In this document: positions 1 to 29,687 of the stretch, in pieces
Layout of the letters: each line of letters opens with the position of its first letter
Position numbering within the stretch: the first letter of the stretch is position 1
From: Mycobacterium gordonae
GTDB lineage: Bacteria > Actinomycetota > Actinomycetes > Mycobacteriales > Mycobacteriaceae
Assembly: GCF_017086405.1 (NCBI RefSeq)
Contig: NZ_CP070973.1
Coordinates: 2,790,739-2,822,738 of the forward strand
Direction of reading: 5' to 3'
DNA length: 32,000 nt
Translations under genes and position numbers: made by a program
Notes under the pieces: generated by a model
The model's input: only the letters and a program-made list of their open reading frames with translations
Told to the model about the DNA's origin: nothing
The model's database searches: none

Positions 1-2170
1 TGCCGCCGGTGCCGCCGGCGCCGCCGGTGTGGCCGGTGCTGCCGGTGCCGCCGGGCGTGGCGGCGTCGCCACCGGTGATGCCGGCCGCGCCGTTTCCGCC
101 GCGTCCGCCGTTTCCGCCGTTGCCGACCAGGCCGCCGTCACCTCCGTTGCCGCCGGACGCCCCGGTGGCTCCCGCCGTGGTGGCATCGGCGCCGCGTCCG
201 CCGGTGCCGCCGTTGCCGCCGGTCGTGGCGGAGTTGCCGGTGGCGCCTTGTGCGCCGGTGGTGGAACCGCTGCCACCTGCGCCGCCGCTGCCACCTGCGC
301 CTGGGTCGCCGCCGTTACCGCCGGCGCCGCCGATCCCGCCGTTGACCGACGTGACGCCGGTGCCGCCGGTGCCGCCGTCTCCGGCGCTCCCGCCGGTGCC
401 ACCGGTGCCGCCTGCGCCGCCGGCTCCCCGCGTGCCGCTGTGGCCCGTGGCGGACTGGGCCGCGCCGCCCCGGCCGCCTGCCCCACCAACCCCGCCGGAT
501 CCACCGCTGCCGCCGTCACCGCCGCTCATGCCGGCCGAACCGGCTCCGGTGGCGTCGGCGCCTTTGCTGCCGGCTCCGCCGTCACCTCCGGTACCGCCAG
601 TTCCGCCCGCGCCGCCGGCCCCGCCATCGCCGGCCAGGGCGCCGCCGCGCCCGCCGTCACCTCCGGTACCGCCGGCGCCGCCGGTGTGGCCGGTGTGGCC
701 GGTGTGGCCGGGTGCGGCGGCATTGACGCCGGGGGTGCCGGCCGCACCGTTGCCGCCGCGCCCGCCAGTGCCGCCGTTACCGACCAGACCGCCGTCGCCA
801 CCTCGACCGCCGGCCGCGCCGGTGGCTCCCGGGGTGAGGGCGTCGGCGCCGCGTCCGCCGTCACCGCCGTCACCGCCGCTGGTGGGTGTGAGTCCGTGCG
901 CACCCGCCGAAGCGCCGGTGCCGCCGGCCCCGCCCGCCCCGCCGCTGCCCGGGTTGCCCCCTTGACCGCCGGCGCCGCCGGTGACGTTGCCCGCCGTGCC
1001 GTCGCCGCCGGCGCCGCCGTTGCCGGCCACACCTCCGCTGCCGCCGGCCCCACCGATGCCACCGATGGCGTGTCCACGGTCGACGCCGAACAGGCCGCCG
1101 CTGCCGCCCCTGCCCCCTTCGCCGCCTGCCCCGCCGGCCCCGCCGTCGGCACCGTTTCCGCCGGCATGGCCGGTCGCGCCGGCCAGCAGCGCGTCAGCGC
1201 CGCTGCCGCCCGCCCCGCCGGCGCCCCCTTGGCCACCGGCACCACCGGCACCGCCGAAGCCGCCGTTGCCGGCCAGCCAACCACCGGATCCGCCGTCGCC
1301 GCCCGCGCCGCCATTGCCGCCATTGCCCCCGGCCGTTCCGGCCCCGCCGGTACCCGCACCGGCGGCAAGACCGGCGGTCCCGGCCGCGCCGGCGCCGCCG
1401 GTCCCGCCCGCCCCTCCGTTGCCCAACATGACGGCCCGACCACCCTGGCCGCCAGCACCGGCGAGTGCGTCCAGGGTGGCGGCTGTTCCGCCCGCACCCC
1501 CGCCCCCGCCGTTGCCCCACAGCATGCCGCCGGCGCCCCCGGCGCCCCCGGTTCCTCCCACGGCCCCGGCCGTCAGCGCGACGCCGCCGGCGCCACCAGT
1601 GCCGCCGGAACCGAAGAGCAACCCGCCGCGACCGCCGGCACCGCCAGTGGCACCGGCCCCGCCCGGCCCGCCGGTTCCGCCGCGGCCGATCAGGCCCGCA
1701 GCACCGCCCGCGCCGCCGGCCACGCCGTCGGCGACACCGGCAGCTCCGTTACCGCCGTTGCCCCACAGCAGTCCTCCGGCGCCGCCGGCCTGTCCGGGCA
1801 CCATGCCGTCGGCGCCGTTGCCGAACAGCGGGCGCCCCAGTAAGCCCTGCGCGGGCGCGTTGACCAGCTGGGAGAACAGCTGTTCGGCGGCGGCGACTTC
1901 GGCGCTCGCATACGAGTGCGCGGCACCGGTCAAGGCCGCCACGAACCGCTCGTGGACAGCGGCTACCCGGGCTCCGACCGCCTGATACTCCTGACCGAGC
2001 TGGCCGAACAGCGCCGCAATCGCGGTGGACACCTCATCCTGTGCGGCGGCGGCCAACGCGGTGGTCGACATCGCCGCCGCCGCGTTCGCCTCACTGACCG
2101 CCCAGCCGACACGGGTGAGATCTGCCGCAGTCGCCGCCATGAATTGTGGCGCAGCGATCAACAAAGACAT
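1..2170 (-). CDS. PE_PGRS family protein, partial (C-terminus runs off the left edge)
   Basis: Reverse-strand ATG at 2170-2168 with GGAGG (rc of 2177-2181) 6 nt upstream. My translation starts [56 protein letters not shown]...[37 protein letters not shown], a PE domain. It then continues as GGA/GGN Gly-Ala repeats (rc of GCCGCC tracts) to position 2. The ORF track lists no stop-bounded ORF in this frame, consistent with an open frame leaving the window. Confidence 0.9.
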
Positions 2171-4224: not shown

Positions 4225-4346
4225 ATTTAATTGCATCGACTCGATGTGCTTGATTCGTTTTCACTCCGAAACGTGAACAGATCCATGTGGCGCAGCGCAC
4301 AATACCTCTGCCCGAATTCGGGAACAGGGCGTGATTGGAGGCTGCC

Positions 4347-6155
4347 GTGTCGTTTCTCATTGCCGCTCCGCAGGTGTTGGATACCGCCGCAACGGATCTC
4401 GCACGCATCCGTTCGGCGCTGAGTGCCGCCAACGCGATAGCTTTCACCCCGACCGCCGAGGTGTTGGCGGCCGGGGCCGACGAGGTCTCGACGGCAATTG
4501 CGGCCGTGTTCGGCGTGCATGCGCACGCCTATCAAGCCATTAGTGCGCAAGGGGCCGCATTTCATGCTCAGTTCGTGCAGGCTCTCAATGCCGGCGCCCT
4601 GGCCTACGCAAGTGCCGAGGCCGCCAGCATCGACCAACTCGTCCTCGGCGCGGTGAACGCACCAACCCAGGCACTACTGGGGCGACCGTTGATCGGCGAC
4701 GGGGCTGATGGCGCACCGGGCCGTAACGGCGGCGCCGGAGGATTGCTATACGGCAACGGCGGACGTGGAGGTGCCGGACTGCCCGGCCAGGTGGGCGGCA
4801 ACGGCGGTGCGGCGGGCCTGATCGGAACTGGCGGTGCCGGCGGCCAGGGCGGAGCCGGTGCGGTAGGCGGCAACGGCGGCAGCGGCGGATGGCTGTTCGG
4901 CAACGGCGGCGCCGGCGGGCAGGGAGGCGCCGCTCTCGCCGGCATCAATGGCGGCAATCCCGGCCAGGGCGGTCACGGTGGCAATGCCCTGTTGTTCGGC
5001 GACGGCGGTGCAGGCGGGCAGGGTGGTACCGGGCTGGCGGGGGCCACCGGGGTGAATCCGCTAGTCGGCGGTGCAACCGCTACGGGGGTGCCGGGCTTAA
5101 GCGATTCTGTGAGCGGCAGCGCTCGTGGCACCTCCGGCGCCACCGGCGGTGACGGCGGCCTCAGCTCCACCGGCGGCGTCGGAGGAAAAGGTGGCAGTGC
5201 GCACTCCCTCACGAATTTCGCGCTTGCCGGCAACGGCGGCACTGGTGGCGCGGGTGGTAACGGCGGCGCCGGCGGTGACGGCGGAACAGCCTTCGGCGGC
5301 AACGGTAGTGCCATCGGCGGCCTCGGTGGAGATGGAGCCAGCGCCCAAGCGCTCGGCGGGTTCGGGGGTGCCGGTGGCAACGGCGGTAATGCCGACAGCG
5401 TCGGAGCCGGTGGTTTTGCCGGAGCCGGCGGTAGCGGGGGTGCCGGTGGCGCCGGCAGCGCAGGTGGTGCCGGCGGCGCTGGTGGTGCCGGCGGCGACGG
5501 TGGCCACGGCGGGATGTTCGTTGGTCAGGGCGGCCGCGGGGGCACCGGCGGCCAGGGCGGCAGCGGGGGAGCCGGCGCGGCGGGCGGTGACGGTGGCGAC
5601 GCGGGCGCCGGCGGGAAGGCGACGGCCGTCGGTGGCAGTACCGGCGCGAACGGAGCCAATGGCGGTAACGGCGGCGACGGCGGCACCGGCGGCATGGGAG
5701 GCACCGGCGGATCCGGCGGTCGAGGCGGCAACGGCGGTGCCGGTGGATTCCTGGTGGGCAACGGCGGTGCGGGCGGAACCGCGGGCGTCGGTGGCGTCGG
5801 CGGCGTCGGTGGCGGCGGTGGGGCGGGCGGGTTCGGTGGTAGCGGCGGTGGCGCCACCGGGACCGTCGTCTCCGGCGCCGGCGGTTCCGGAGGTGGCGGT
5901 GGTGATGGGGGAACCGGCGGTACCGGGGGCACCGGAGGCGGCAGCAGCCTCGGGGGCCTCGGCGGTGCGGGCGGTGTGCTGTTCGGCGAAGCGGGCGTGA
6001 ACGGTAGTGCTGGTCAGGGTGGTCTTGGGGGCGGCGGTGGTGTTGGCGGTGCGTCAGGGAAGGGTGGGTCTAAGGGGTTCGGTTCGTCGTCGAATGGCGC
6101 CATCGGCGCGAACGGCGACGTCGGTGACGACGGAGCACCCGGCCAACACGGCTAG
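4347..6155 (+). CDS. PE_PGRS family protein
   Basis: GTG at 4347 with GGAG at 4337-4340. PE domain [30 protein letters not shown]...[12 protein letters not shown]...YASAEAAS, linker [11 protein letters not shown], then about 480 aa of GGAGG/GGNGG repeats. Confidence 0.9.
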
Positions 6156-6309
6156 CTGGTGTGTGGCTTCGAATGGGGCCTGCAGGGCCTCGGAGTGCCG
6201 TGCCGTGTAAGGGGCCTTGTTCCCTATCCGCGTTGACACCCGCGCTGACCGATCGGATGTCGACCGTTCGTGTTTATCCAACCCCTACTCACATTTGCGG
6301 GAGGTTCTC

Positions 6310-8151
6310 GTGTCCTATGTAGTTGCAATGCCGGAGTTGTTGTCTGCGGCGGCATCGGATGTGGACCGAATCGGTCATGCTCTGGCCGGTGCCGGCGCGG
6401 CTGCGGTAGGCCCGACCACCTCGGTACTGGCTGCCGGTGCCGACGAGGTATCGGCAGCTATCGCAGACCTGTTTGGTGGGTACGCGCGGGCGTATCAATC
6501 CGTCAGCACGCAGGCGGCGACTTTTCATGCGCACTTTGTGCAGGCACTGACCGTCGGGGCCGGCACCTACGCGGGTGCCGAGGCCGCCAACGCTTCGCCG
6601 TTACAGGTCGTGGAGCAGCAGATACTCGGAGTGGTCAACGCGCCGACCCAGGCATTGCTCGGGCGACCGCTGATCGGCGACGGAACTAACGGCGGACCGG
6701 GGCAGAATGGCGGCGCAGGCGGTTTGCTGTTCGGTAACGGCGGCCGTGGCGGCGACGGCCTGCCAGGTCAGGTGGGTGGCAATGGGGGACCCGCGGGCCT
6801 GCTAGGCAACGGTGGCGCGGGCGGCACTGGTGGCGCCGGTGCGGCGGGTGGTTCGGGTGGCACCGGTGGACTGCTGTTCGGTAACGGCGGTGCGGGCGGA
6901 ACCGGCGGGGCCGCGACGGCGGGTGTCAAGGGCGGTCTTGCCGGCCACGGCGGCAGCGGTGGCAACGCCTTCTTGTTCGGCGACGGGGGCGTGGGCGGTC
7001 AGGGCGGCACCGGCCTTACCGGGGCGACCGGCACCAACCCGACGATCAGCGGGACCGGCGCCACCGGCACCACCGGGACCGTCGCCATCTCGCAAGGAGT
7101 CAATGGCAATCTGACCGGCGGTCCTGGCGGGGACGGCGGAGACACCGGGCTGGGGTCCACCGGCGGCACCGGCGGCGACGGCGGTTTCGCCGGAATTTTC
7201 GGTGACGCACTGGGGAACGCTTCTGCCGGTAATGGCGGCATAGGAGGCAGCGGTGGAAATGGCGGAACCGGCGGCTTCGGTGGGGTTGCAATTGCCGGTG
7301 CTGGTACCGCTCAAGGGGGTGCGGGCGGCAACGGGAACATCGGCAGTGCGCCCGGTGGTGCCGGCGGTGCCGGTGGTGCCGGGGGTGCTTCGATCAGCAA
7401 CTCTGGTTCGTCCCAAGCATTAGGCGGTGGCGGAGGCCAGGGTGGCGGCGGTGGCACCGGGGCATCAGGCGGCACGGGTGGAGTCGGCGGCACGGGTGGT
7501 AACGGTGGTGCCGGCGGTTTGCTGATCGGCAACGGCGGCGCCGGCGGTCAGGGTGGTGCGGGCGGCGTCGGTGGAACAGGAGCAGTCGGAGGATCCGCCG
7601 GTGTGGGCGGCGACGGCGGATCCGGCGGTGCCGGCGCAGGTAACGGCATCGGAGGTACGGGTGGTGCCGGCGGCGGGGGAGGCGTCGGCGGCACCGGCGG
7701 GCTCGGCGGAATCGGCGGTGACGGCGGCAACGGCGGGCGTGGCGGACTGCTGATCGGCGACGGCGGTGTTGGCGGCAATGCCGGTGTTGGTGGGTTGGGC
7801 GGCACTGGCGGCGTCGGCGGTTCGGGTGGGGCGGGCGGCGCTGGGGGCAGTGGTTCGGGCATCTTCAATGGTGAGGGCGGCCCGGGCGGCGCGGGTGGAG
7901 ACGGCGGTACCGGAGGCACCGGAGGCGACGGTGGTGGCAGCGGGGGTGGGGGCATCGGTGGTTCGGCGGGCATGTTGTTCGGTCACACGGGTACCAACGG
8001 TGCGGCCAGTGGCGGTGGCGCAGGTGGGCAGGGTGGCGCTGGGGGTGCGCTCGCCGCCGGAGGCAAGGGTGGATTCGGGTTATCCGGTGTCGGCGTTGAC
8101 GGCGCCGCTGGAAAGGCTGGTGGGCAGGGCGCCTCTGGCCAACCCGGCTAG
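6310..8151 (+). CDS. PE_PGRS family protein (tandem paralogue of 4347-6155)
   Basis: GTG at 6310 ([28 protein letters not shown]...[12 protein letters not shown]...YAGAEAAN), preceded by [17 protein letters not shown] linker followed by PGRS repeats. The track ORF start at 6217 adds an implausible N-terminal extension. Confidence 0.9.
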
Positions 8152-8186
8152 CCGGCAGCCGGGTCGGGGTCGAATACGGTGTCCTG

Positions 8187-8810
8187 GTGACACAAGACCG
8201 GGCCCCGCACTCCGGCGGGGGTTTCAACCCGCCCGAACCGACCGACAAGGGTGGCCCGGACTACCACCGCTTCATTGAGGCGGTGCGCAAGCTGCAGGAT
8301 CATGCCCGCGCCGTCGACGCCCCCGATGCGGTGATCACCGAAGCCGCTGACCGGCTCGAAGAACTCTCGGCGCTGCTGGCGCCGTTCGACGCCGACGAGT
8401 GGCAATCGCCGTCCGGTCGCCGGATGGACCTGCCGATGCGCGGGAATGTCCTGACCATACCCATGAACGCGCGCCAGACGGATGACGGCCGGATCGAGGG
8501 CTGGGCGCGGTTCGCCCGGTTCCACCTCGGGCGCAACGGCGCCGTGCACGGCGGGTCGCTCGGCATGCTCTTCGACACGGTGCTCGGGCTGACGGCGTCG
8601 GTGCTCACCGGTAGTCGCCGCCAGCGCACGGCCTACCTCAAGATCAACTACCGCAACATCGTTCCGATCGAAAAGGAGTTGCAGTTCGACGCCGGAGTCG
8701 ACAGCGAGGACGGACGCAAGATCTTTGTGTCCGGCCGCCTGCGGGACGGCGACACACTGCTGACCGAAGCCGACGCGCTGTTCGTGCGCCTTAAACCGGG
8801 GCAGCCCTGA
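8187..8810 (+). CDS. Hotdog-fold (PaaI-like) thioesterase family protein
   Basis: Core block GRNGAVHGGSLGMLFDTVLG followed by a beta-rich C-terminus (KINYRNIVPIEKELQFDAGV...IFVSGRLRDGDTLLTEADALFV). This resembles PaaI/DUF4442-type hotdog proteins. The assignment is by motif resemblance only. Confidence 0.55.
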   Translation: MTQDRAPHSGGGFNPPEPTDKGGPDYHRFIEAVRKLQDHARAVDAPDAVITEAADRLEELSALLAPFDADEWQSPSGRRMDLPMRGNVLTIPMNARQTDDGRIEGWARFARFHLGRNGAVHGGSLGMLFDTVLGLTASVLTGSRRQRTAYLKINYRNIVPIEKELQFDAGVDSEDGRKIFVSGRLRDGDTLLTEADALFVRLKPGQP

Positions 8811-9008: not shown

Positions 9009-9992
9009 ATGACCGAAATCTTCAATGCGGCAAGGCCTACGAATCGTCCCGCCGGTGAATCACCGGTCTCCGTCGCCCTCGTCATTCCCGCCTATAACGA
9101 GGAACGTTTCATCGGCAGGTGCCTCGAATCCTGCCTTCGGCAGACTTCTCCACCCGACGAAATAATCGTCGTCAACAACAGGTCGACCGACGACACCAGA
9201 AAAATTGTGCGCCGGTTCCAAGCCCGAAACCCTCTCGTCGACATTCGGTTGCTGGACCAGGACGCCTGTCAAGGCATCGTGCCCACTCGCAACCATGGCT
9301 TCGATAACGTCCGCAGCACCGTGATCGGCCGCATCGACGCCGATTCCAGCATCGCCGACAACTGGGTCGAGACGATCCGCCGTCGGTTCCGCAATCCCGT
9401 CGTCAGCGCCGTGACGGGCCCGGTGTGGTACTACGACATGCCATTCCAGCAGCCCGTCTTTCGGCTTGATCGCGCCGTTCGGGACCGGTTGTACAGGACC
9501 GCAACAGACCAACGTTTTCTGTTCGGTTCGAATATGGCGATCCGCACGTCGGCGTGGCGCGCTGTCCGTCACCTCACCCAGCTCGATCCCGAAGACCGCC
9601 TGCATGAAGATATCGACCTCGCCCTGGCATTGTTCAAGAACAAATTCGAGATCGAATACGACGCCACGCTTGTTGCCGGTGTATCCGGCCGGCGCATCGA
9701 GGACTCGCCACGCAATTTCTATCGGTACGCCATGCGCTATTTGCGGACAACCAGGGCGCACCACGTCAAGAGCGGCGGGGCGCTGGGCACGATCGCGATT
9801 CTGTTGTTGGGTTACTTCCCGGTCCGCACTTTGCGCTTGTTCTATGACGGCGAAAAGAATCGGTTCACGTTGGCGAAACTGCGCGACAAGATGCGCGGCG
9901 AGCGCGGGCGGGCACCGGTGGTCAGGCAGCTGGTGCCCGCGCGCACCGGGGCCCTGGGCGCCGCCGATCCGCAATGGCCGCCGGCGGCCTGA
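9009..9992 (+). CDS. Family 2 (GT-A) glycosyltransferase, membrane associated
   Basis: VALVIPAYNEERFIGRCLESCLRQTSPPDEIIVVNNRSTDDT is a classic GT2 N-terminus. There are DxD-like IDAD and later HEDIDL motifs, and a hydrophobic segment GALGTIAILLLGYFPV near the C-terminus. Confidence 0.8.
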   Translation: MTEIFNAARPTNRPAGESPVSVALVIPAYNEERFIGRCLESCLRQTSPPDEIIVVNNRSTDDTRKIVRRFQARNPLVDIRLLDQDACQGIVPTRNHGFDNVRSTVIGRIDADSSIADNWVETIRRRFRNPVVSAVTGPVWYYDMPFQQPVFRLDRAVRDRLYRTATDQRFLFGSNMAIRTSAWRAVRHLTQLDPEDRLHEDIDLALALFKNKFEIEYDATLVAGVSGRRIEDSPRNFYRYAMRYLRTTRAHHVKSGGALGTIAILLLGYFPVRTLRLFYDGEKNRFTLAKLRDKMRGERGRAPVVRQLVPARTGALGAADPQWPPAA

Positions 9993-16936: not shown

Positions 16937-18643
16937 TTACGGTAGCCGCCCCGGGAATCCCAATCCGCCCAGCGCATCATGAATTCCCTGCACCGCACCC
17001 TGCTGTAGCTGCGCGGCGAGGACGGCCGGATCGACCTGGGGGAACAATCCGAAAGGCGTCGGCACGTCCTGGTAGGCGGTCCGGTCGTAGCCCAGCTCGA
17101 CGAGCACCCGCAGGTCCGGCTGGACCAGGTCGGCCAGCGGATTCCCCACCAGCGGGATGGCGCGCACCGGGTTGAGCAGCGGCAGGTCGTGGGTGGGGAT
17201 CAGGATGTAGGTGGTCAGACTGCCCGGGGACACCGGCTGGACGATGCCGGACGCGAACTGGGCGGCTGACAACGAGTATGACGGGTGGATATAGGCGAAG
17301 CCGGCCAGCGCGTTGGCCGTTGCCAGCAGGTTGAGCGGGTAACGGGGGAAGTCGGCGGCGCCGTCGTACTGGATGGCGTAATCCACAGTGGGATAGACGT
17401 TGGCGGGCGTCGCGCCGTTGAAAGTGAAGCCCAGGAACGGGATGGACAGGCCCGTGAAGCGTGACAGCAGGCCGCCGTCAGGCCGGTTGGGGTTGGCGAT
17501 CAGCACAAAAGACAGTTCGTCGGCCGCGGGCCGCAACGCCGGCGGCAGGGACTGCAGGTAGCGCATTTCCAGCGTCGCCACCGTGGCGCTCTGGGACACG
17601 CCGAATACGACTATGTCTTTGCCCGCGGCATGCAGGTTCATGGTGGCGGTGTTGAGCCGATGCATCCCCTCGGCGATCGAGGCGTCGAAGGTCAGGCTGG
17701 TGGGTCCGGTGATGGGAAACATCTTCTGCGGTGTCACCAGAAACTGTGCGTCATAGGACGGATGGGTAGGAGTGATGAAGCTGCTCGGCAGCACCTCGAA
17801 GCCCGACCAGGGCAGAGGGTTGGGTCCGGTTCCACCCATCAGCAGCGCCGTCGTGGTCGAACTGCCGCCCCCGGCCGGGGTCAGCTCGATAAGGTTCACG
17901 CCGACGTTGCCGTCGCCGGGAAGTCCGTAACCGACGAGGTGGTTGCCGATGTTGATGAGCCCGACGTTGCAGTTGCCCTTGTTGTTGACGCCGATGTTGC
18001 CCTCACCACGGTTTCCGACGCCGATGTTGCCGTTGCCGACATTGCCGAATCCGATGTTGTTGGCGCCCTGGTTGCCCGAGCCCAGGTTGAAGGTGCCGTC
18101 GGCCCAGTCGATGCTGAGCCCGGGCAGGCCGGTGGCGGCATGCGTGGCGGACAGTTGCTGCGCCACTGCCGACACCTGCGCGTGGTATCCGGCCATGGCC
18201 GCGACGTCTTGGGCCCACATCTGTTCGTAGGCGGCTTCGGCGGCCGCGATGGCGGGGGCGTTCTGCCCGAACAGGTTGGTCGTCACCAGCGACACCAGCC
18301 CCGACCGGTTGGCGGCAACCAGCCCCGGGTGCACGACCGCAGCCTGCGCGGTCTCGAATGCGCCCGCCGCCACTCGCGCCTGTGCGGCCGTCCGTTCGGC
18401 CTGCGTCGCCGCCGACGTCAACCACGTGGCATAGGGCGCCGCGGCCCGCGTCATCGCCAGCATCGCCGGGCCCCGCCACCCGTCGGCCAGGCCCGAGGTG
18501 ACCGCGGTGAACGAACGCGCCGCGGCATCCAGTTCGACGGCCAGCCCGTCCCAGGATGCCGCCACCGACAGCCAGCTGCGCGGCCCCGCACCGGCGAAGA
18601 TGCGCGCGGAGGTGAGTTCCGGCGGTAGAACGGCGAAATTCAT
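16937..18643 (-). CDS. PPE family protein with C-terminal PE-PPE (alpha/beta hydrolase-like) domain
   Basis: [25 protein letters not shown]-terminus (ATG at 18643; the track start at 18673 adds 10 atypical residues). NxGxGNxG repeats ([24 protein letters not shown]). C-terminal domain with FGVSQSA pentapeptide (17588-17602) and [20 protein letters not shown] tail. Confidence 0.9.
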
Positions 18644-18669
18644 CGCGAGGCTCGTCAGGTTACAACCAC

Positions 18670-20427
18670 TCACAGTTTCGGTGGCACACCCAACGAAGCC
18701 AACGCATCGTGCACACCCTGCACAGCACCCTGATGCAACTGAGCGGCGAGCAGCGCCGGATCGACGTGTGGGAACAACCCGAACGGTGCCAACACGTCCT
18801 GGTAGGCGGTGCGGTCGTATCCCAACTCAACGAGCACTCGCAAATCGGGCTGGACCAAATCGGCGAGTGGGTTTCCCACGAGGGGAATGGCGCGCAACGG
18901 GTACAGCAGCGGCAGATCTTCGGTGGGAAGCAGGATGTAGGTGGCGTGTACGTCCGGCGACGACACCGGCTGAACGATACCTGCCGCCAGATCGTGCGGC
19001 ACCGTCATCAATCCGGAGTGCAGGAAAACGATGCCCGCAACGGCGTTGGCGGTCGAAATGAGATTCAGCGGGTATCGGGGGAAGTCGGCGACGCCATCGT
19101 ATTGGACCGCATAGTCGACGAGTGGGTAGACGGAGGGCGTCGCGCCGGAGAAAGAGATACCCAATTGAGGTATGGCGAGACCGCGGGCAAACAGACCGCC
19201 GTCGGGCCGGAAGGGATTACCGGTCAGCACAAAGGACAATTCGTCTAGCCCCGGTCGTAGGTTTTCGGACAGGGAATGCAGATAGCGGATTTCCATCAGC
19301 GCTATCGCCGCACCCTGGGAGCCACCGAACACGATGACGTGGTTTCCCGCCGCAAGTTGCTCGGTAATCTCGGCATGCAGATTCACGACGCCCTGCGCCA
19401 CCGAGGCGTCGAAGGTCAAGCTGCCCGGCCCGGTGAGGGGGAAAAATTCAGACGGCGTCTTCAAGTACTCGGCGGTATACCCAAGATGGAAGGGAGTGAT
19501 GAAGTGCGCCGCGTACTCCAGTATCGCGGGTCTCGGCAGAGGTAGCGGGCTCTTGGTTCCGCCTATCACCAATGCTGTTACTCCCGGCCCGCCGTCCCCG
19601 ACCACCAGGGCGTGCGGGTAGTCGTCGTCGGGAATCCCGAAACCGATTTGTCCGTTTCCGGTCAAGCCGATGCCGATGTTCCCATTGCCTTGATTCCCCA
19701 AGCCGAAGTTCCTGCTTCCAAGATTATGGAAGCCGATGTTTTCATTGCCGGTGTTTGCGACGCCGATGTTTCCATTGCCGTTGTTCCCGAAGCCGATGTT
19801 GTTGATTCCGGTGTTTGCGCTGCCGACGTTGAACGTGCCGTTTTCCATATTCACGCTGATCACTGGAAGCCCAGCGGCGGCGTACGCGCTGGCCACCTGC
19901 TCGCGCAGATTCTGCGCCAGCTGCTGCCACTGCGGCAGCTGCGTGGCCGCTGACGCGTTGGCGTGGTAACAGGCCATCGCAGCGACGTCTTGGGCCCATA
20001 TCTGTTCGTAGTCGGCTTCGACGGCGGCGATGGTCGGGGTATTCAGGCCCAGGAGATTGGATCTTACGAGTGAGACCAGCTGGCTCCGGTTGGCCGCGAT
20101 CACCGCCGGATGCACGATGGCCGCGCGGGCGGCATCGAAGGCGTCAGCGGCCAGTCGTGCCTGGGCGGCCGTTTGCTCAGCCTGGCTCGCCGCCACGCTC
20201 AACCAACCCACATACGGCCCGGCTGCGCGTGTCATCGCCTGCAGGGCATCGCCCTGCCAGGCCTCGCCTGCCAGCCCGAAGGTCGCCGATGCGACGGAGC
20301 CCGCCGCAGCCTCCAGCTCCTGCGCCAGACCATCCCAGGCGGCGGCAGCGGCCAGCATCGGTGCACGGCCGACACCTGTGCACATGCGAGTCGAATTCAA
20401 TTCCGGCGGTAACACGGCAAAACTCAT
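18670..20427 (-). CDS. PPE family protein with C-terminal PE-PPE (alpha/beta hydrolase-like) domain
   Basis: [19 protein letters not shown]-terminus. NxGxGNxG repeats. Canonical GxSxG in FGGSQGA (19312-19326). The C-terminal 80 aa are nearly identical to the downstream paralogue. Confidence 0.9.
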
Positions 20428-22962: not shown

Positions 22963-23091
22963 CTCACCGACCGACGCGCCAAGCGTGACGCTCGGCGCTC
23001 GAACGTTGCGCTGCCGTGACGCTCGATGCGCTATAGCGCCCACGTAGACTTGCTAGGCGAACTTTTCCAGCGAAAGAGGTAAGAGGAGCCG

Positions 23092-23847
23092 ATGAGCGGC
23101 CATTCCAAGTGGGCCACCACCAAGCACCAGAAGGCCGTCAAAGACGCCCGCCGCGGCAAGGAATTCGCCCGGCTGATCAAGAACATCGAAGTGGCCGCCC
23201 GCACCGGTGGTGGCGATCCAGCGGGTAATCCGACCCTGTATGACGCCATCCAGAAGGCCAAGAAGACCTCGGTGCCCAACGACAACATCGAGCGGGCGCG
23301 CAAGCGTGGCGCGGGTGAGGAAGCCGGCGGCGCGGACTACCAGACCATCATGTACGAGGGCTACGGACCCAACGGCGTCGCGGTGCTCGTCGAATGCCTC
23401 ACCGACAACCGCAACCGCGCGGCCAGCGAAGTGCGGGTGGCGATGACCCGCAACGGCGGCACCATGGCCGACCCCGGCTCGGTCGCCTACCTGTTCTCCC
23501 GCAAGGGCATGGTGACCCTGGAAAAGAACGGTCTCACCGAGGACGACGTCTTGACTGCCGTGCTGGATGCCGGCGCCGAAGACGTCAACGACCTCGGGGA
23601 AAGCTTCGAGGTGGTCTCGGAGCCCACCGACCTGGTGGCAGTGCGGACCGCCCTGCAGGAGGCCGGCATCGATTACGAGTCGGCCGAGGCCAGCTTCCAG
23701 CCCTCGGTGAGTGTCCCGGTGGACGTCGAGGGCGCCCGCAAGGTGTTCAAGCTCGTCGACGCCCTGGAGGACAGCGACGACGTGCAGAACGTGTGGACCA
23801 ACGTCGATCTGTCCGACGAGGTGCTGGCCGCGCTCGACGAGGAGTGA
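23092..23847 (+). CDS. yebC: YebC/PmpR family DNA-binding transcriptional regulator
   Basis: [37 protein letters not shown]...[14 protein letters not shown] is the family signature. AAGAGGAG RBS at 23081-23088. Confidence 0.95.
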
Positions 23848-24138
23848 GCGGGCTGGCCCGTTAGCCGACGTTCCAGGACGTGGAATTGGGCTGCGCCAGC
23901 CCAGGTCCCGCCAGGTCCGCTGATTGCTCGGCAATCCTTCCCCTACCAGTCAGCTATCACTCGACCACCTGCGTTCCCACTGAACCCGCACCGACAGAGA
24001 CACGGCTAGATGGTCTGGGTGACCCGGCTGGTTCGTGCCCGGGTGGTGCCTGTCGAAACGAATATCGAATGACTGGCGCGAGGGCCCGCCATCGGAAACT
24101 CCGTCGACTCTGGCAAACCGCTACGGCAGACTTGCCGA

Positions 24139-25551
24139 GTGCTTCTGACTGTCACGACCACCCACCAGCCGGCGACCGATCTCGGCTACCTCCTGCACAA
24201 GCATCCGGACCGTGTGCAGGAGTTCAAGCAGTCCTTCGGCACCGTCACCGTCTTCTACCCCGAAGCCACCGCCGAGCGGTGCACCGTCGCGCTGATGCTG
24301 AACATCGATCCGGTCCGGTTGGCGCGGTCCCGGGCTAGGAACACCCCGGACTTCAGCCTGGCGCAGTACGTGAATGACCGCTCCTACGCAGCATCGTCGC
24401 TGCTGGGCGTGGCGATGGCCGACGTATTCAGCACCGCGCGCAGCGGACGCTGCAACTCCAGGCAAGAGCTCGCCGACTCCGCGATCCCGCTTGAGATCGT
24501 TATCCCGGTGCTGCCGTGCAGAGGCGGCCCTGACATCGCCCACCGGTTCTTCGAGCCCCTCGGCTGGACGGTCGAAGCCGAGCCGATCCCACTCGACGAC
24601 GCCTTTGCCGAGTGGGGTGATTCCCGTTATCTCCGTCTCAAGCTGACCGGCACGGTCAAGCTGGCCGACGCCCTCAACCAGGTCCACGTCCTGCTCCCGG
24701 TGCTCGATGAGTCCAAGCACTATTGGCAGGGACCGGACGAGGTCGACAAGCTCCTCCGCTCCGGGGAGGGCTGGCTCGCCGGCCACCCGGACGCCAACCT
24801 CATCACCCGTCGCTATCTCGGTCGCCACGGCGGGCTCACCCGCACGGCGCTGGCCAGGCTCGCCGAGCTCGGCGACGAGCTCGAAGAGGCCATCGAGCCG
24901 GCCGAAGACGAGGAGGTCCTGCAGCCCGAGGCGCAGCGAGTGCCGCTCAACACCCAGCGACACGACGCCGTCTACCAGGCTCTGCTCGATCTCGGGGCAC
25001 GTTCGGTCATCGACCTCGGGTGCGGTCCTGGCCAGTTCCTCGACCGGCTGGTCAAGACCCCGGCGTTCTCCCGGATCGCCGGCAGCGACGTCTCCACCCG
25101 TTCACTCCAGCACGCCGCACGGCGCCTGCGCGTCGAGCGGATGAGTGAGCGGCAGGCCGCGCGCGTCGAGCTGTTCCAGAGCGCCCTCACCTACGAGGAC
25201 GAGCGGTTCGCCGGCTTTGACGCCGCCGTACTCATGGAAGTCGTCGAGCACGTCGACCGACCACGCCTCGAGACCCTCGAACGGGTCGTGTTCGGCGCTG
25301 CGAAGCCTACCGCCGTCATCGTGACGACCCCCAACTGCGAGTACAACGTGCTTTACCAAGGACTGGTCGGCATGCGACACCCCGACCACCGGTTCGAGTG
25401 GAGTCGTGCAGAGTTCGCCGAGTGGTCCGATCGGGTTGCCGCGACCTACGGCTACGGGGTTGTGCGACGGGGAGTCGGCGATCGCGACGACACGCTCGGC
25501 AACCCGACTCAGATGGCGATCTTCACCCGTGAGGAGGGAAACGATGACTGA
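24139..25551 (+). CDS. hen1: Bacterial Hen1, 3'-terminal RNA ribose 2'-O-methyltransferase (RNA repair partner of Pnkp)
   Basis: 470 aa. N-terminus MLLTVTTTHQPATDLGYLLHKHPDRVQ is typical of the bacterial Hen1 N-terminal (ligase-activating) domain. The C-terminal Rossmann methyltransferase has SAM motif I VIDLGCGPGQF (DLGCGPG at 25012-25032). It also has the Hen1 metal-site blocks MEVVEHVD and RHPDHRFEW. It is immediately adjacent to, and overlaps, pnkp. Confidence 0.85.
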   Translation: MLLTVTTTHQPATDLGYLLHKHPDRVQEFKQSFGTVTVFYPEATAERCTVALMLNIDPVRLARSRARNTPDFSLAQYVNDRSYAASSLLGVAMADVFSTARSGRCNSRQELADSAIPLEIVIPVLPCRGGPDIAHRFFEPLGWTVEAEPIPLDDAFAEWGDSRYLRLKLTGTVKLADALNQVHVLLPVLDESKHYWQGPDEVDKLLRSGEGWLAGHPDANLITRRYLGRHGGLTRTALARLAELGDELEEAIEPAEDEEVLQPEAQRVPLNTQRHDAVYQALLDLGARSVIDLGCGPGQFLDRLVKTPAFSRIAGSDVSTRSLQHAARRLRVERMSERQAARVELFQSALTYEDERFAGFDAAVLMEVVEHVDRPRLETLERVVFGAAKPTAVIVTTPNCEYNVLYQGLVGMRHPDHRFEWSRAEFAEWSDRVAATYGYGVVRRGVGDRDDTLGNPTQMAIFTREEGNDD

Positions 25552-28069
25552 TCCGGCAACCCAGCAGCAGCAGCAGATCACCGTTCCCGCCATGGGCCTG
25601 ATCGTCCTCGTCGGCGTCTCCGGAAGCGGCAAGTCCACCTTCGCCCGCACCCATTTCAAGCCCACCGAAGTCGTCTCCAGCGACTTCTGCCGCGGGCTCG
25701 TGGCCGACGACGAAAACGACCAGTCCGCCACGCCTGACGCCTTCGACGTCCTCCACTACATCGTCGGTACCCGACTTCGGCGGGGACTGCTCACCGTGGT
25801 CGACGCCACCAACGTCCAGCAGTCGGACCGTGCCTCGCTGATCAAACTGGCCAAGGGCCACGACGTCCTGGTCGACGCGGTCATCCTCGATGTCTCGGAG
25901 GAGGTCGCAATTGAACGCAACAACCAGCGGCCGGACCGTGACTTCGGCAGCCAGGTAGTCTCGCGCCAGCACCGCGACCTCAAGCGATCGTTTCGGCGGC
26001 TCGGCAAGGAGGGTTTCCGCCGCGTCCATGTCCTGCGCGGTACCGACCAGATCGACGCGGTCGACATCGTCCGCGAACCTGCGTGGAACGACCGCAGAGA
26101 CATCCACGGCCCGTTCGACATCGTCGGCGACATCCACGGATGCGCCTCCGAGTTACGCACCCTGCTCACCCAGCTCGGCTGGCAGATCCGGTACGACGGT
26201 ACGACCGCGATCGACGCCACGCACCCCGACGGACGCCAGGCAGTCTTCGTCGGTGACCTCGTCGACCGCGGCCCGGACAACCCCGGAGTGCTGCGTCTGG
26301 TCATGGGCATGGTCGCCTCCGGAAACGCGCTGTGCGTCTCTGGCAACCACGAGGCCAAGCTCGTGCGCGCACTCAGAGGCTCGAAGGTGACCGTCTCCCA
26401 CGGACTTGCGGAATCGCTTGCACAGATGCAGGCCGAGCCCGAGGACTTCGGCAAGCAGGCACTCGCCTTCATGGAGGGGCTCATCAGCCACTACGTCCTC
26501 GACGACGGCAAGCTCGTCGTCGCCCACGCCGGACTCAAGGAGAGCTACCACGGACGTTCCTCCGGCCGCGTGCGGTCCTTCGCGCTCTACGGCGACACCA
26601 CAGGAGAGACCGACGAATACGGCCTGCCGGTTCGCTACCCCTGGGCCCAGGAGTACCGCGGCCAGGCGATGGTCGTCTACGGCCACACCCCGGTCCCGAA
26701 GGCGGAGTGGATCAACAACACGATCTGCCTGGACACCGGTGTCGTCTTCGGTGGCGAACTGACCGCCCTGCGCTACCCCGAGCGCGAGATCGCCGCTGTC
26801 CCAGCGCAACAGGAGTGGTACGAGCCGGTCCGCGCCCCGCGTCCCCACCCCAGCCGACGCGAGGCGTCGGTTCTCAAGATCGGCGACGTCGCCGGCACCC
26901 GTTGGCTGGAGACCACCCACGCCGGCAAGGTCAAGGTCCCCGAGGAGAACGCCGCGGCCGCGCTGGAGATCATGAGTCGGTTCGCGGTCGACCCGCGCTG
27001 GCTGATCTATCTCCCGCCTACCATGTCGCCTGTCGCGACTTCGCAGGTCGAGGGCTTCCTGGAGTACCCCGAGCAGGCATTCGAGGAGTACGCGGGCTGC
27101 GGCGTCACCCGCGTGGTGTGCCAGGAGAAGCACATGGGCTCGCGCGCCATCGCCGTCGTCACCAAGGACACCGACGCCGCCGAGCGACGCTTCGGTATCG
27201 GCGATGGCACCACAGGTGTCGTCTACACGCGTACCGGGCGTCCGTTCCTCGCGGACGCCACCGAACTCGTCGACCGGCTCCGGCTCGCGGCCGAGCCGCT
27301 GTTCGAATCCTTGGACACCGACTGGCTCGCCCTCGACTGCGAGTTCCTGCCCTGGTCGGCCAAGGCCATCGACCTCATCAAGGCGCAGTACGCCTCGGTG
27401 GGCGCGGCCGCCCGGAGTGTTCTGCCCGAGGCGCTCGGTGTGCTCGAGCAGGCCGCGGCACGCGGTCTCGACGTCGGTGATCTCGCTGAGAGGTCGCGGC
27501 GCCGGCTCGAGAACGCCGTGGCATTCCGCGATGCCTACGCGGTGTACGTCCGGCCCACCGAAGGGCTCGACGGCGTGACCCTTGCGCCCTTTCAGATCCT
27601 CGCCTCGGAGGGCCGCTCGCTCGCGCTTACCGAGTCCCACGAGTGGCACCTCGCCGAACTCGCCAAACTCCAAGGCGATCTCATCACGCCGACCCGCCAC
27701 CACTTCGTCGACCTCGCCTCTCAGGACGAGCGGGACCGGGCCACGCAGTGGTGGCTCGACCTGACGGCCGCTGGTGGCGAAGGCATGGTCGTCAAGCCCG
27801 CTTACCCGACCGAAGGGCGTGTTCAGCCCGCCATCAAGGTGCGTGGCCGGGAGTACCTGCGAATCATCTACGGCCCTGACTACACCGACTCGCTGGACGT
27901 GCTCCGCGAGCGCCACCTCGGCAAGAAGCGTCAGCTTGCGCTCCGCGAGCATGGTCTGGGCATCGAAGCTCTGACCGCCTTCGTCGACCACAAGCCGCTC
28001 TGGACGGTGCACCAGGCGGTCTTCGCGGTCCTCGCGTTGGAGTCCGAGCCGGTCGACCCACGGTTGTGA
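25544..28069 (+). CDS. pnkp: Polynucleotide kinase-phosphatase-ligase (Pnkp), trifunctional RNA repair enzyme
   Basis: 841 aa. 5'-kinase P-loop GVSGSGKST (25613-25639). Calcineurin-type phosphoesterase motifs GDIHG (26126-26140), GDLVDRGPDN, GNHE and GHTP. C-terminal adenylyltransferase/ligase domain has motif I lysine in CQEKHMGSR (Lys529, AAG 27128-27130), motif IV EGMVVKP and motif V-like AIKVRG. ATG at 25544 is preceded by GAGGAGGGA and overlaps the hen1 stop by 8 nt (ATGACTGA). The track ORF start at 25406 lies inside hen1. Confidence 0.9.
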   Translation: MTDPATQQQQQITVPAMGLIVLVGVSGSGKSTFARTHFKPTEVVSSDFCRGLVADDENDQSATPDAFDVLHYIVGTRLRRGLLTVVDATNVQQSDRASLIKLAKGHDVLVDAVILDVSEEVAIERNNQRPDRDFGSQVVSRQHRDLKRSFRRLGKEGFRRVHVLRGTDQIDAVDIVREPAWNDRRDIHGPFDIVGDIHGCASELRTLLTQLGWQIRYDGTTAIDATHPDGRQAVFVGDLVDRGPDNPGVLRLVMGMVASGNALCVSGNHEAKLVRALRGSKVTVSHGLAESLAQMQAEPEDFGKQALAFMEGLISHYVLDDGKLVVAHAGLKESYHGRSSGRVRSFALYGDTTGETDEYGLPVRYPWAQEYRGQAMVVYGHTPVPKAEWINNTICLDTGVVFGGELTALRYPEREIAAVPAQQEWYEPVRAPRPHPSRREASVLKIGDVAGTRWLETTHAGKVKVPEENAAAALEIMSRFAVDPRWLIYLPPTMSPVATSQVEGFLEYPEQAFEEYAGCGVTRVVCQEKHMGSRAIAVVTKDTDAAERRFGIGDGTTGVVYTRTGRPFLADATELVDRLRLAAEPLFESLDTDWLALDCEFLPWSAKAIDLIKAQYASVGAAARSVLPEALGVLEQAAARGLDVGDLAERSRRRLENAVAFRDAYAVYVRPTEGLDGVTLAPFQILASEGRSLALTESHEWHLAELAKLQGDLITPTRHHFVDLASQDERDRATQWWLDLTAAGGEGMVVKPAYPTEGRVQPAIKVRGREYLRIIYGPDYTDSLDVLRERHLGKKRQLALREHGLGIEALTAFVDHKPLWTVHQAVFAVLALESEPVDPRL

Positions 28070-28106
28070 CGTTGAGTCACATGGACCACCGCACCAACCA
28101 CAGGCA

Positions 28107-29687
28107 TCAGTCGTAACCCCGCCGCATGTCCGCCACGACTCGCGGGTTGTCCAGCGTGGACGGCTCCATCGGACGTGGCCGCACGTCCTCGGAGAACACC
28201 GTCGCGGCGTCCAGCACGCGCTGGTCCAGGTAGCGCAAGGAGGGAGCATCGCGCGGCAGCGCCGCCGCCGGCGCGGCGTCGCCGCGGCGGGCCAGGACGA
28301 AACCCCAGTCACCGAAGGTGGGCACGTGCACGTGATACGGGGTGACCGCAAAACCGCCGGACCGGATGGTCGAGACGGTGCGCCAGAACGCCTTCCGCGT
28401 CGAGAACGGGCTACCGGCTTGCACCACCATCAGGCCGCCCGGTGACAACACCCGGTCGACCAGCGCATAAAACTCTGTCGAATACAGGCGGCCCAGCACG
28501 GGCGTGTCCGGATCGGGCAGATCGACGATCACCGCGTCGAACCGGTCGGTCCGCGGGCCGCGCAGCCAGGTCATGGCGTCGTCGATCACCAGCTGCACGC
28601 GTGGGTTGTCCAACGAGCCCCCGTTGGCGTCGCGCATCGTGGTGCGTGCCAGTTCGACAACCGCCGGGTCCAGCTCGACCTCAGTGATCCGGCGCAAGCC
28701 GGGCTGGCGCAGCAGTTCGCGCGCCGCCAGCCCGTCGCCGCCGCCGAGCACCAGAGCCGACTGGGCGCCACCTCCGAGGGCCGGATAGACCAGGCTTTCG
28801 GTATAGCGGTATTCGTCCCGGGTGGAGAATTGCAGATCCCCGTCCAGGTAGAGGCGCATGTCGCGGTCGCGACGGGTGATTACGATGTCCTGATAGGCAG
28901 AGTGCCGGTGGGCGATGATCGGGTCGGCGTAGAGCCGCTGGCGGCTGGAGAGCTCGATCTCCCGGGCGTTTACCAGCAGGATCACCAGCAGCGTCAACGC
29001 CGTCGTCAGTGCGCCCAGCGCCGCCGCCAGCTGGCGCGCCGACACCAGCCGCCGCAGCAGAAACACCGCTACGATCGCCGCGGCCACCAGGTTGACAATG
29101 CCGGTGGCCGCGGCCCCGCGGATCATGCCCAGCTGAGGCAGCAGCAGGAACGGCCAGGCCAGCCCGCCGACCAGGGCGCCCAGGTAGTCGGCCGCGGTCA
29201 AGTTGGCCAGCGTACGTCCGGTATCGGTGGCCAAATCACTGCGCGGGTCCCAGGGCCCCTGCACCCGGCCGCGCTGCAGCAGCGTCATCAACAGCGGCAC
29301 CTCGGCGCCGACCAGGCAACCGATCAGCCCGGTGCTCACCGCCAGCACCAGCGTCGAACCGTTGACGAAAGCGAACGCGACATACAGGGCCGCGGCGGAC
29401 AGTCCGCCGACGATGCCTAGGAGCACCTCCACAGCGATGAAGGTGATCGCGGCACGCGCCAGCAGCGGTTTGATCAGCAGCGCGCCCAGCCCCAACGCGG
29501 CGATGTAGCCCGCGACGATCAGCGATGTCGCCACGATGCCGCCGCCGTTCAGGTTGGTCGACAATGTCAGCATCGCCAGTTCGTAGACGATCCCGCACGC
29601 CGCGCAGGCCGCCACCGCGGCCAGCAGGACGGCGCGCCACCGTCCCAGCGACGGTGAGACCGGTTCGGCGGCAGCGGTCGTCGTCAT
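28107..29687 (-). CDS. speE: Membrane-fused spermidine synthase-like aminopropyltransferase (Rv2601-like)
   Basis: About 230 aa N-terminal polytopic membrane domain. Followed by a spermidine synthase fold with [15 protein letters not shown] (SAM/dcSAM motif), VIVDLPDPD and QAGSPF blocks. Confidence 0.85.

Follow-up and report, generated by a model that had tools for sequence, protein, structure and literature searches.

The window analyzed here, a 32,000-nucleotide stretch of mycobacterial DNA (contig NZ_CP070973.1), very probably contains, at 24139-28069, an intact and canonical bacterial Hen1-Pnkp RNA repair operon that lies on a horizontally acquired segment of about 4.26 kb in Mycobacterium camsae. 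The cassette is already annotated publicly, the exact Pnkp sequence being recorded as “polynucleotide kinase-phosphatase [Mycobacterium camsae]”; it belongs to a known family with a known mechanism, it is not a new system, and its sequence does not depart from the canonical form. M. camsae X7091T, a slow grower belonging to the M. gordonae complex, was isolated from a skin infection and described in 2025 (PMC12617827). We found no paper in the literature on Pnkp or Hen1 in mycobacteria, and the cassette is unmentioned in both M. camsae papers, the description (PMC12617827) and a later phenotypic and transcriptomic study. What is new is that the operon was apparently gained recently, by horizontal transfer into an intergenic site of variable content, and that it is under purifying selection; in other respects it is ordinary.

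The operon consists of two genes on the forward strand. The first, hen1 (24139..25551), begins with GTG and encodes a 470-residue 3'-terminal RNA ribose 2'-O-methyltransferase, and the second (25544..28069) begins with ATG and encodes Pnkp. For Pnkp, the open frame reaches back to 25406; counted from the ATG at 25544, the product has 841 residues. This ATG and the Hen1 TGA (25549-25551) share the eight nucleotides 25544-25551, ATGACTGA, which were read directly in the sequence (they are visible in aacgATGACTGAtcc) and which putatively couple the translation of the two genes. In comparisons with family models and structure alignments, neither gene had a truncation, a frameshift or a missing part.

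Hen1 scored 675.1 bits against the NCBIfam equivalog model TIGR04074 (bacter_Hen1), which has a cut-off of 340, with residues 2-464 aligned to positions 1-462 of the 462 in the model. Pfam Hen1_L (PF12623) covered residues 1-242 over all 242 model positions (E 1.3e-114), and class I methyltransferase domains were also matched. Among solved structures from Clostridium thermocellum, the N-terminal domain matched PDB 4dqz (E 2.9e-81) and the methyltransferase matched 3jwi (E 1e-57). Residues 1-242 are predicted to be the Pnkp-binding domain that activates the Pnkp ligase, and the C-terminal domain the Mn2+/S-adenosylmethionine (AdoMet) methyltransferase. The motifs DLGCGPG, EVVEH and HPDH were found at residues 292, 367 and 414, and when Hen1 was aligned with its C. 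thermocellum (Cth) counterpart, the AdoMet motif D292-LGCG, E367, E370, H371 and D416-H417 were identical. Residues of the pattern E-x-x-E-H ... D-H are the metal ligands of HEN1 enzymes, those of plant HEN1 being Glu796, Glu799, His800 and His860 (PMC10781085).

For Pnkp, the score against TIGR04075 (bacter_Pnkp, also an NCBIfam equivalog) was 1316.6 bits, where the cut-off is 750, and residues 11-841 aligned with positions 2-851 of the 851 in the model. Its Pfam domains were AAA_33 (19-153), Metallophos (190-385) and PNKP_ligase (472-836, E 9e-158), and these, together with the PDB matches, place a P-loop 5'-OH kinase, a binuclear metallophosphoesterase and a C-terminal adenylyltransferase/ligase in the order that the family requires. 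All three domains matched C. thermocellum structures: the kinase PDB 4gp6 (E 4e-53), the phosphatase 4j6o (E 3e-102) and the ligase 4drf (E 2e-119). The motifs lie at residues 24 (GVSGSGKST), 195 (GDIHG), 237 (GDLVDRG), 267 (GNHE) and 380 (GHTP), and in the ligase at 529 (KHMGSR), 746 (EGMVVKP) and 764 (IKVRG). In a gap-free alignment, kinase residues K30, S31, D47, R50, R125, R129 and R132 correspond to Cth K21, S22, D38, R41, R116, R120 and R123, for which roles have been described (Lys21, Ser22, Asp38 and Arg41, and the lid residues Arg116, Arg120 and Arg123; PMC3902929). The phosphatase residues D196, H198, D238, R242, N268, H269, H328, H381 and D397 correspond to Cth D187, H189, D233, R237, N263, H264, H323, H376 and D392, whose active-site roles are also known (PMC3675462). 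The ligase lysine K529, within KHMGSR, is identical to that of the Cth enzyme, and residues 477-529 aligned with PDB 3ty8 without gaps. We take K529 to be the counterpart of Cth Lys531, the adenylylated lysine of motif I, on the basis of the construct offset.

An earlier sequence-only reading of the window had proposed that these genes form a complete heal, methylate and seal cassette, and had described two open reading frames (ORFs) overlapping by eight nucleotides at 25544-25551, a set of catalytic motifs, and a ligase lysine at residue 529. The ORF coordinates and direct reading bore out the two ORFs and their overlap, all of the quoted motifs were found in the proteins to which they had been assigned, and the lysine is Lys529. 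The completeness of the cassette was also upheld: both proteins gave profile hits far above the curated equivalog cut-offs, and alignment with the solved C. thermocellum domains found every catalytic residue kept and none lost.

The Pnkp-Hen1 system of C. thermocellum, studied by the Shuman laboratory, has the same two-gene, co-oriented cassette and the same domain order in Hen1 and in Pnkp, whose adenylyltransferase is of the Rnl type; all mapped catalytic residues are identical, and the domain E-values range from 1e-53 to 1e-119. Its structures comprise the kinase (4GP6/4JST), phosphatase (4J6O), ligase (3TY5/3TY8/4DRF), Hen1 N-domain (4DQZ) and Hen1 methyltransferase (3JWG/3JWI). The two systems differ in phylum and GC (guanine plus cytosine) content, the M. 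camsae phosphatase has a four-residue deletion and its ligase shorter loops, and the M. camsae pair is known from sequence alone. The Pnkp/Hen1 heterotetramer of Anabaena variabilis (Huang laboratory) is a member of the same family with the same presumed reaction order. Two PDB entries deposited as “Hen1”, 3JWH and 3JWJ, which are presumably the Anabaena protein, matched the M. camsae Hen1 with E-values of 3.3e-55 and 1.2e-54. In the Anabaena system colicin-cleaved tRNA is repaired and 2'-O-methylated, ligation requires Hen1, and the methylated junction resists re-cleavage (PMC4411300, PMC3675462).

The Pnkp1-Rnl-Hen1 heterohexamer of the Capnocytophaga type (PDB 4XRP/4XRU) shares all four activities, and its ligation likewise depends on Hen1 (PMC4411300). 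Unlike the window system, it is made of three proteins encoded by unlinked genes, and its phosphatase is of the T4-like DxDxT kind and not a metallophosphoesterase; matches to its proteins were weak (Rnl, E 8e-5; Hen1, E 9e-9). Assignment of the window system to this variant was considered and rejected, as a system with two linked genes and a metallophosphoesterase is clearly not of that type. Other repair routes for breaks with 2',3'-cyclic phosphate plus 5'-OH termini are RtcB/RtcA and T4-type Pnkp plus Rnl1, the latter including the Pnkp of mycobacteriophages Omega/Cjw1. The ligase chemistry of RtcB is unrelated, the T4-type phosphatase has a different fold, and neither the RtcB nor the T4-type route leaves a 2'-O-methyl mark.

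The operon would be transcribed from a leaderless promoter carried on the insert, with translation of Hen1 and Pnkp coupled via ATGACTGA. By homology to the characterized systems (PMC3675462, PMC4411300), the Mn2+ phosphoesterase domain, with the residues aligned above from D196 to D397 (D196, H198, D238, R242, N268, H269, H328, H381, D397), would strip the cyclic phosphate from the broken RNA, and the Hen1 methyltransferase (DLGCG; E367, E370, H371, H417) would then methylate the 2'-OH of the 3'-terminal nucleoside. Next, the kinase (K30, S31, D47, R50) would phosphorylate the 5'-OH, and the K529-adenylylated ligase, activated by the Hen1 N-domain, would seal the nick. The expected outcome is a 2'-O-methylated junction resistant to re-cutting by the same kind of nuclease.

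The flanking genes locate the foreign segment. On the left is yebC (23092..23847, + strand; TACO1/YebC family by Pfam) and on the right a gene for a speE-like polyamine aminopropyltransferase of 526 residues (28107..29687, - strand), both of them vertically inherited. The yebC side is 90-91% identical in nucleotides to the M. gordonae-complex loci L082, L083, L085 and L088, and this homology stops at 23847-23849; on the speE side homology to M. gordonae-complex loci resumes at 28107. The foreign segment therefore spans 23850-28106, about 4.26 kb, between the converging yebC and speE-like genes. It is made up of a left end of 207 bp (23850..24056), a co-transferred upstream region (24057..24138, + strand) that begins where 93.5% nucleotide homology with the closest relative begins, the two genes, and a right end (28070..28106) in which that homology runs to 28098, so that the junction with the mycobacterial flank falls in 28099-28106. 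A contig assembled from an independent read set (Logan SRR14935311, L081) was 100% identical over 23001-29000, and thus the junctions are not an assembly artefact of one record.

Related genomes carry other contents at this position. In the Mycobacterium metagenome-assembled genome (MAG) L088 the yebC-speE gap is only 16 bp (9570-9585), an empty site. A PE_PGRS gene occupies the spot in M. gordonae and M. paragordonae (1392 residues) and in M. pumcae Z3061 (988 residues, plus small ORFs), the occupied intervals being L082 9570-13949, L083 9570-13934 and L085 9576-13953. The closest relatives of the speE-like protein itself, at 88-90% amino acid identity, are those of M. gordonae, of M. paragordonae, of Mycobacterium sp. 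Z3061 (M. pumcae) and of an uncultured Mycobacterium MAG. In M. tuberculosis, vapBC41 (Rv2601A/Rv2602) lies between yebC (Rv2603c) and speE (Rv2601c); of this arrangement, the identity of Rv2602 as VapC41 was confirmed. Based on the differing contents across the M. gordonae complex and the M. tuberculosis arrangement, it seems that among slow-growing mycobacteria the yebC/speE junction has varied repeatedly.

Judged by its relatives, the operon is not native: it is evidently a recent horizontal gain found in one named species and one metagenomic lineage, and it reveals little about Mycobacterium as a genus. The best 120 Pnkp matches from 5.8 billion clustered proteins (at least 79% identity) included M. 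camsae as the sole named Mycobacterium, and the other entries named to genus or family were mainly Nocardioides/Nocardioidaceae, with Actinopolymorpha, Mumia, Georgenia, Occultella and Ornithinimicrobium also present. In species-representative genomes, among the matches listed, Pnkp amino acid identity was 72-86% in Nocardioides-type genomes and MAGs, 68% in Tsukamurella and about 60% in Nocardia (both Mycobacteriales), and 57-67% in Rhodococcus plasmid copies. The Hen1 relatives show the same pattern, and therefore both genes travelled together. In a neighbor-joining tree, M. camsae fell inside a Nocardioides/Marmoricola clade and distant from Nocardia. The synonymous divergence (dS) between the cassette and Nocardioides-type cassettes, whose hosts belong to another order, was 0.57-0.68, about the same level as that of the flanking yebC and speE between M. 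camsae and sibling species (0.41-0.51). A metagenome scan gave no relative above 88% among the matches listed. Plasmid records with full-length Pnkp numbered 17; they came from several phyla and included Rhodococcus megaplasmids but no Mycobacterium plasmid, and 50,697 phage records held no full-length Pnkp, only partial kinase or phosphatase matches.

Nocardioides/Nocardioidaceae-type cassettes (for example L001, L004, L094, P0004, P0012) are 84-88% identical to that of M. camsae in amino acids and 79-85% in nucleotides across both genes, and they share its 8-nucleotide ATGnCTGA overlap and the GGCAGACT box before the GTG start. Some of them have RlaP and TROVE (Ro60-like) genes upstream, whereas M. 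camsae received the two-gene core only. Larger RNA-repair neighborhoods of this kind were seen in Nocardioides-type and other actinobacteria, with an RlaP nucleotidyltransferase gene in 11 loci and a TROVE/Ro60-like gene in 4, just upstream of Hen1-Pnkp (L094 at 5523-8500, L004, L008, L012, L023, L095, L105, L106, L109, L120, L123, L161). In L001, an Actinomycetales MAG that was the top genome-collection match among the matches listed, a tRNA-gene-like 3' end (recognized by eye) and a hairpin at 4300-4400 lie about 230 bp upstream of Hen1; Hen1-Pnkp may occupy an island-type location there.

The closest relative (P0002, 92% amino acid identity) was on JGI metagenome contigs L090-L093 (samples 3300060280-85), which are 93.5% identical in nucleotides to 24057-28098, that is, from 82 nucleotides upstream of Hen1 to 29 past Pnkp. 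These contigs bear a classical PE_PGRS gene on the opposite strand, and therefore they probably derive from another slow-growing Mycobacterium. A 709-residue ORF called on L091 was rejected as a wrong-strand artefact of that PE_PGRS gene. The cassette context in L090-L093 differs from that in M. camsae: on one side are genes for an insertion sequence (IS) transposase, IS110, and for a PemK/MazF toxin, the latter accompanied by a small partner gene, and on the other rve and Mu-C transposase fragments. The PemK/MazF-family toxin gene (L091 3613-4178, also in L090 and L092; Pfam E 9.4e-26, with a 77-residue upstream partner) is about 870 bp upstream of Hen1 and divergently transcribed, and the IS110 transposase and PE_PGRS genes adjoin it. 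At L090 3121-16432, a cassette-bearing unit of 6560 bp is present in 2.5 tandem copies at 99.96% identity; it contains Hen1 and Pnkp, the 5' portion of a gene resembling an antitoxin gene, a 64-residue ORF, and the Mu-C and rve transposase fragments. The repeat represents either a tandem amplification or a circular form, and L093 (6809 bp, slightly over one unit) had no exact end overlap. Between the two mycobacterial copies, in M. camsae and L090-L093, dS was 0.15-0.16 and the ratio of nonsynonymous to synonymous divergence (dN/dS) was 0.22-0.23 for both genes, compared with 0.10-0.15 in deeper comparisons. These values indicate that both genes are under purifying selection, somewhat relaxed relative to the deeper comparisons.

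Gene order and upstream signals are also conserved across the family. Hen1 was directly upstream of Pnkp on the same strand in 157 of 165 related Pnkp loci, and seven of the remaining eight are cut by a contig end; a stop/start overlap of 4 or 8 nucleotides was found in 58 of 76 related loci. When 76 actinobacterial loci were aligned by anchoring at the Hen1 start, GTG was the start in 73 of them, and a conserved block, G-n-C-A-n-A-n-T (GGCAGACT in the window), preceded it, in which A was overrepresented at -11, as was T at -7. The window has a -10-like CAGACT at 24127-24132 that ends 7 nucleotides before the Hen1 GTG. In leaderless transcripts of actinobacteria, the -10 hexamer is of the TANNNT type and ends 7 nucleotides ahead of the start codon. 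Because the conserved -10-like box fits this geometry, the operon is predicted to yield a leaderless mRNA, with its promoter (24127-24132) within the DNA that was transferred. Further upstream is a GGAAAC block (24094-24099), and across the 76 loci A is enriched at -44 to -42; this conserved GAAA/GGAAA block, at about -43, is some 27 nucleotides upstream of the -10-like box. It is too far away for a standard -35 element and so it may be a regulator site.

Several observations weigh against an intact, recently acquired operon. For the M. camsae pair, catalysis, complex formation and any substrate in the cell are deduced from homology; a scan of 23600-24400 for a consensus sigma-70 promoter and terminator found none, and the proposed leaderless promoter rests on conservation. 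At the borders there are no terminal direct or inverted repeats and no target-site duplication beyond chance-level short matches, no integrase or tRNA was found beside them within the window, and the 207 bp at 23850-24056 match neither the yebC or PE_PGRS spacers of sibling mycobacteria nor the upstream regions of cassette relatives. There is no compositional signal of transfer, the cassette having a GC of 0.67 and a third-codon-position GC (GC3) of 0.85-0.86, against 0.86-0.89 in the flanks, with skew that is also normal; as the nearest cassettes have similar GC and GC3, this test is uninformative rather than contrary. Further, more divergent mycobacterial cassettes may exist beyond the matches listed by the two collection scans. 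An ancestral mycobacterial operon, inherited vertically and lost by most relatives, would suit the host-like composition, the conserved housekeeping genes on both sides and the 93.5% identical copy in a second, probably mycobacterial lineage. We nevertheless regard it as very improbable and largely refuted: four M. gordonae-complex genomes have no cassette at the site, one of them with the clean 16-bp empty site; the L090-L093 copy is in a different context, amid IS and transposase genes; the relatives of the proteins are of Nocardioides type at 84-88%, while Mycobacteriales copies reach 57-68%; and the cassette's dS to members of another order is no higher a level than the flanking genes show between sibling species. 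The sequence-only reading was thus right to place the operon among mycobacterial housekeeping genes, which is what its flanks are, but the cassette itself is a recent horizontal insertion there and not native.

If the operon was acquired, its present role has to be considered. That it is a silent or decaying passenger, now functionless in M. camsae, could be argued from its single-species distribution, from the lack of a recognizable consensus promoter and from a dN/dS on the mycobacterial branch (0.22) about twice that of deeper comparisons (0.10-0.15), but we think it distinctly improbable, given that both ORFs are full length against the family models with every catalytic residue retained, that dN/dS is well below 1, and that the coupling overlap is intact, as is the conserved -10-like box upstream. 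The sequence-only reading had suggested reversal of, or immunization against, toxin or ribotoxin damage to tRNA or rRNA, with MazF-type endoribonucleases of the genus in view; the cassette would then undo, and protect from, RNA breaks due to MazF/PemK-type toxin-antitoxin ribonucleases of the host itself. The MazF hypothesis is chemically sound, and the closest relative does have a PemK/MazF gene beside its cassette. However, the window has no PemK homologue, and among 165 related loci one adjoins the cassette in only 3 contigs, all from the organism of the closest relative; across the 174 loci surveyed, 165 of them related Pnkp loci, we rejected a PemK association as a general feature of the cassette. 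Cuts by VapC (PIN-domain) toxins leave 5'-phosphate/3'-OH ends that require no healing. That the genus is rich in toxin-antitoxin systems is due mainly to the M. tuberculosis complex, which also counts against such a role. In addition, for no family member is it known what Pnkp-Hen1 acts on in vivo, and the specificity of the complex in vitro is broad (PMC4411300). Overall, a role against the cell's own toxins seems unlikely.

A generic defence carried by mobile elements, directed against competitor-made or phage-triggered ribotoxins such as colicin- or contact-dependent inhibition (CDI)-type tRNases and anticodon nucleases, is a reasonable possibility that we hold tentatively. The characterized systems repair colicin-cleaved tRNA in vitro and have been proposed to be generic repair systems (PMC4411300), full-length Pnkp occurs on the 17 plasmid records, the closest relative is tandemly amplified amid IS110 and rve/Mu genes, and elsewhere the cassette has RNA-repair genes beside it, RlaP in 11 loci and TROVE/Ro60 in 4. 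Against it, the PADLOC-DB defence models gave no match to Pnkp and only a weak methyltransferase-domain match of Hen1 to mad2 (E 6.7e-7), the 50,697 phage records hold no full-length copy, and the support is in vitro for any organism. One could also combine these ideas: the Hen1-Pnkp core might be carried by a mobile unit that passes between mycobacteria and Nocardioides-like actinomycetes of the soil, and be retained for neutralizing a specific transesterifying ribonuclease, for example the MazF/PemK that adjoins it in the closest relative, although as a whole we consider this quite unlikely.

Pnkp-Hen1 has been studied in vitro for two decades. If the cassette is indeed mobile cargo, RNA repair with methylation would constitute a transferable module of “immunity by repair”, and M. 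camsae would be a natural gain-of-function case for finding the in vivo substrate. The recent, clean gain of two genes, with siblings in which the site is empty or otherwise occupied, offers a natural comparison that is close to isogenic. The unit is also compact (4.3 kb) and has a putative promoter of its own, so it could be transferred to tractable mycobacteria and assayed there for protection against MazF-type or exogenous ribotoxins.

The remainder of the window is arranged as is usual in slow growers. Upstream of the cassette are PE_PGRS genes, thrS, a HIT gene, a pgsA-like gene, an acyltransferase gene, a pimA-like gene, a NUDIX gene, two PPE genes, pdxS, tesB, pdxT and yebC; downstream, on the opposite strand, are the speE-like gene and a DUF350/DUF4247/DUF2617/DUF4178 cluster, with ruvCAB just past the window end. 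An Rfam scan of the whole window returned no match, and no Y-RNA-like or riboswitch element was found. Next to yebC/speE there is a second variable spot, the pdxT-yebC spacer (22963-23091), with a length of 129 bp in M. camsae: three sibling genomes have an alpha/beta-hydrolase gene there and M. paragordonae has an ABC1-kinase gene, the spacer coordinates being L082 14706-15986, L085 14710-15989, L088 10342-11674 and L083 14691-16230. Two PE_PGRS genes are on the + strand (4335-6155 and 6217-8151), and the first part of the window (1-2000) has 81% GC with negative GC skew, which suggests a third PGRS gene on the - strand extending beyond the window. At 16937-20427, the - strand carries two PPE/PE-PPE genes in tandem.

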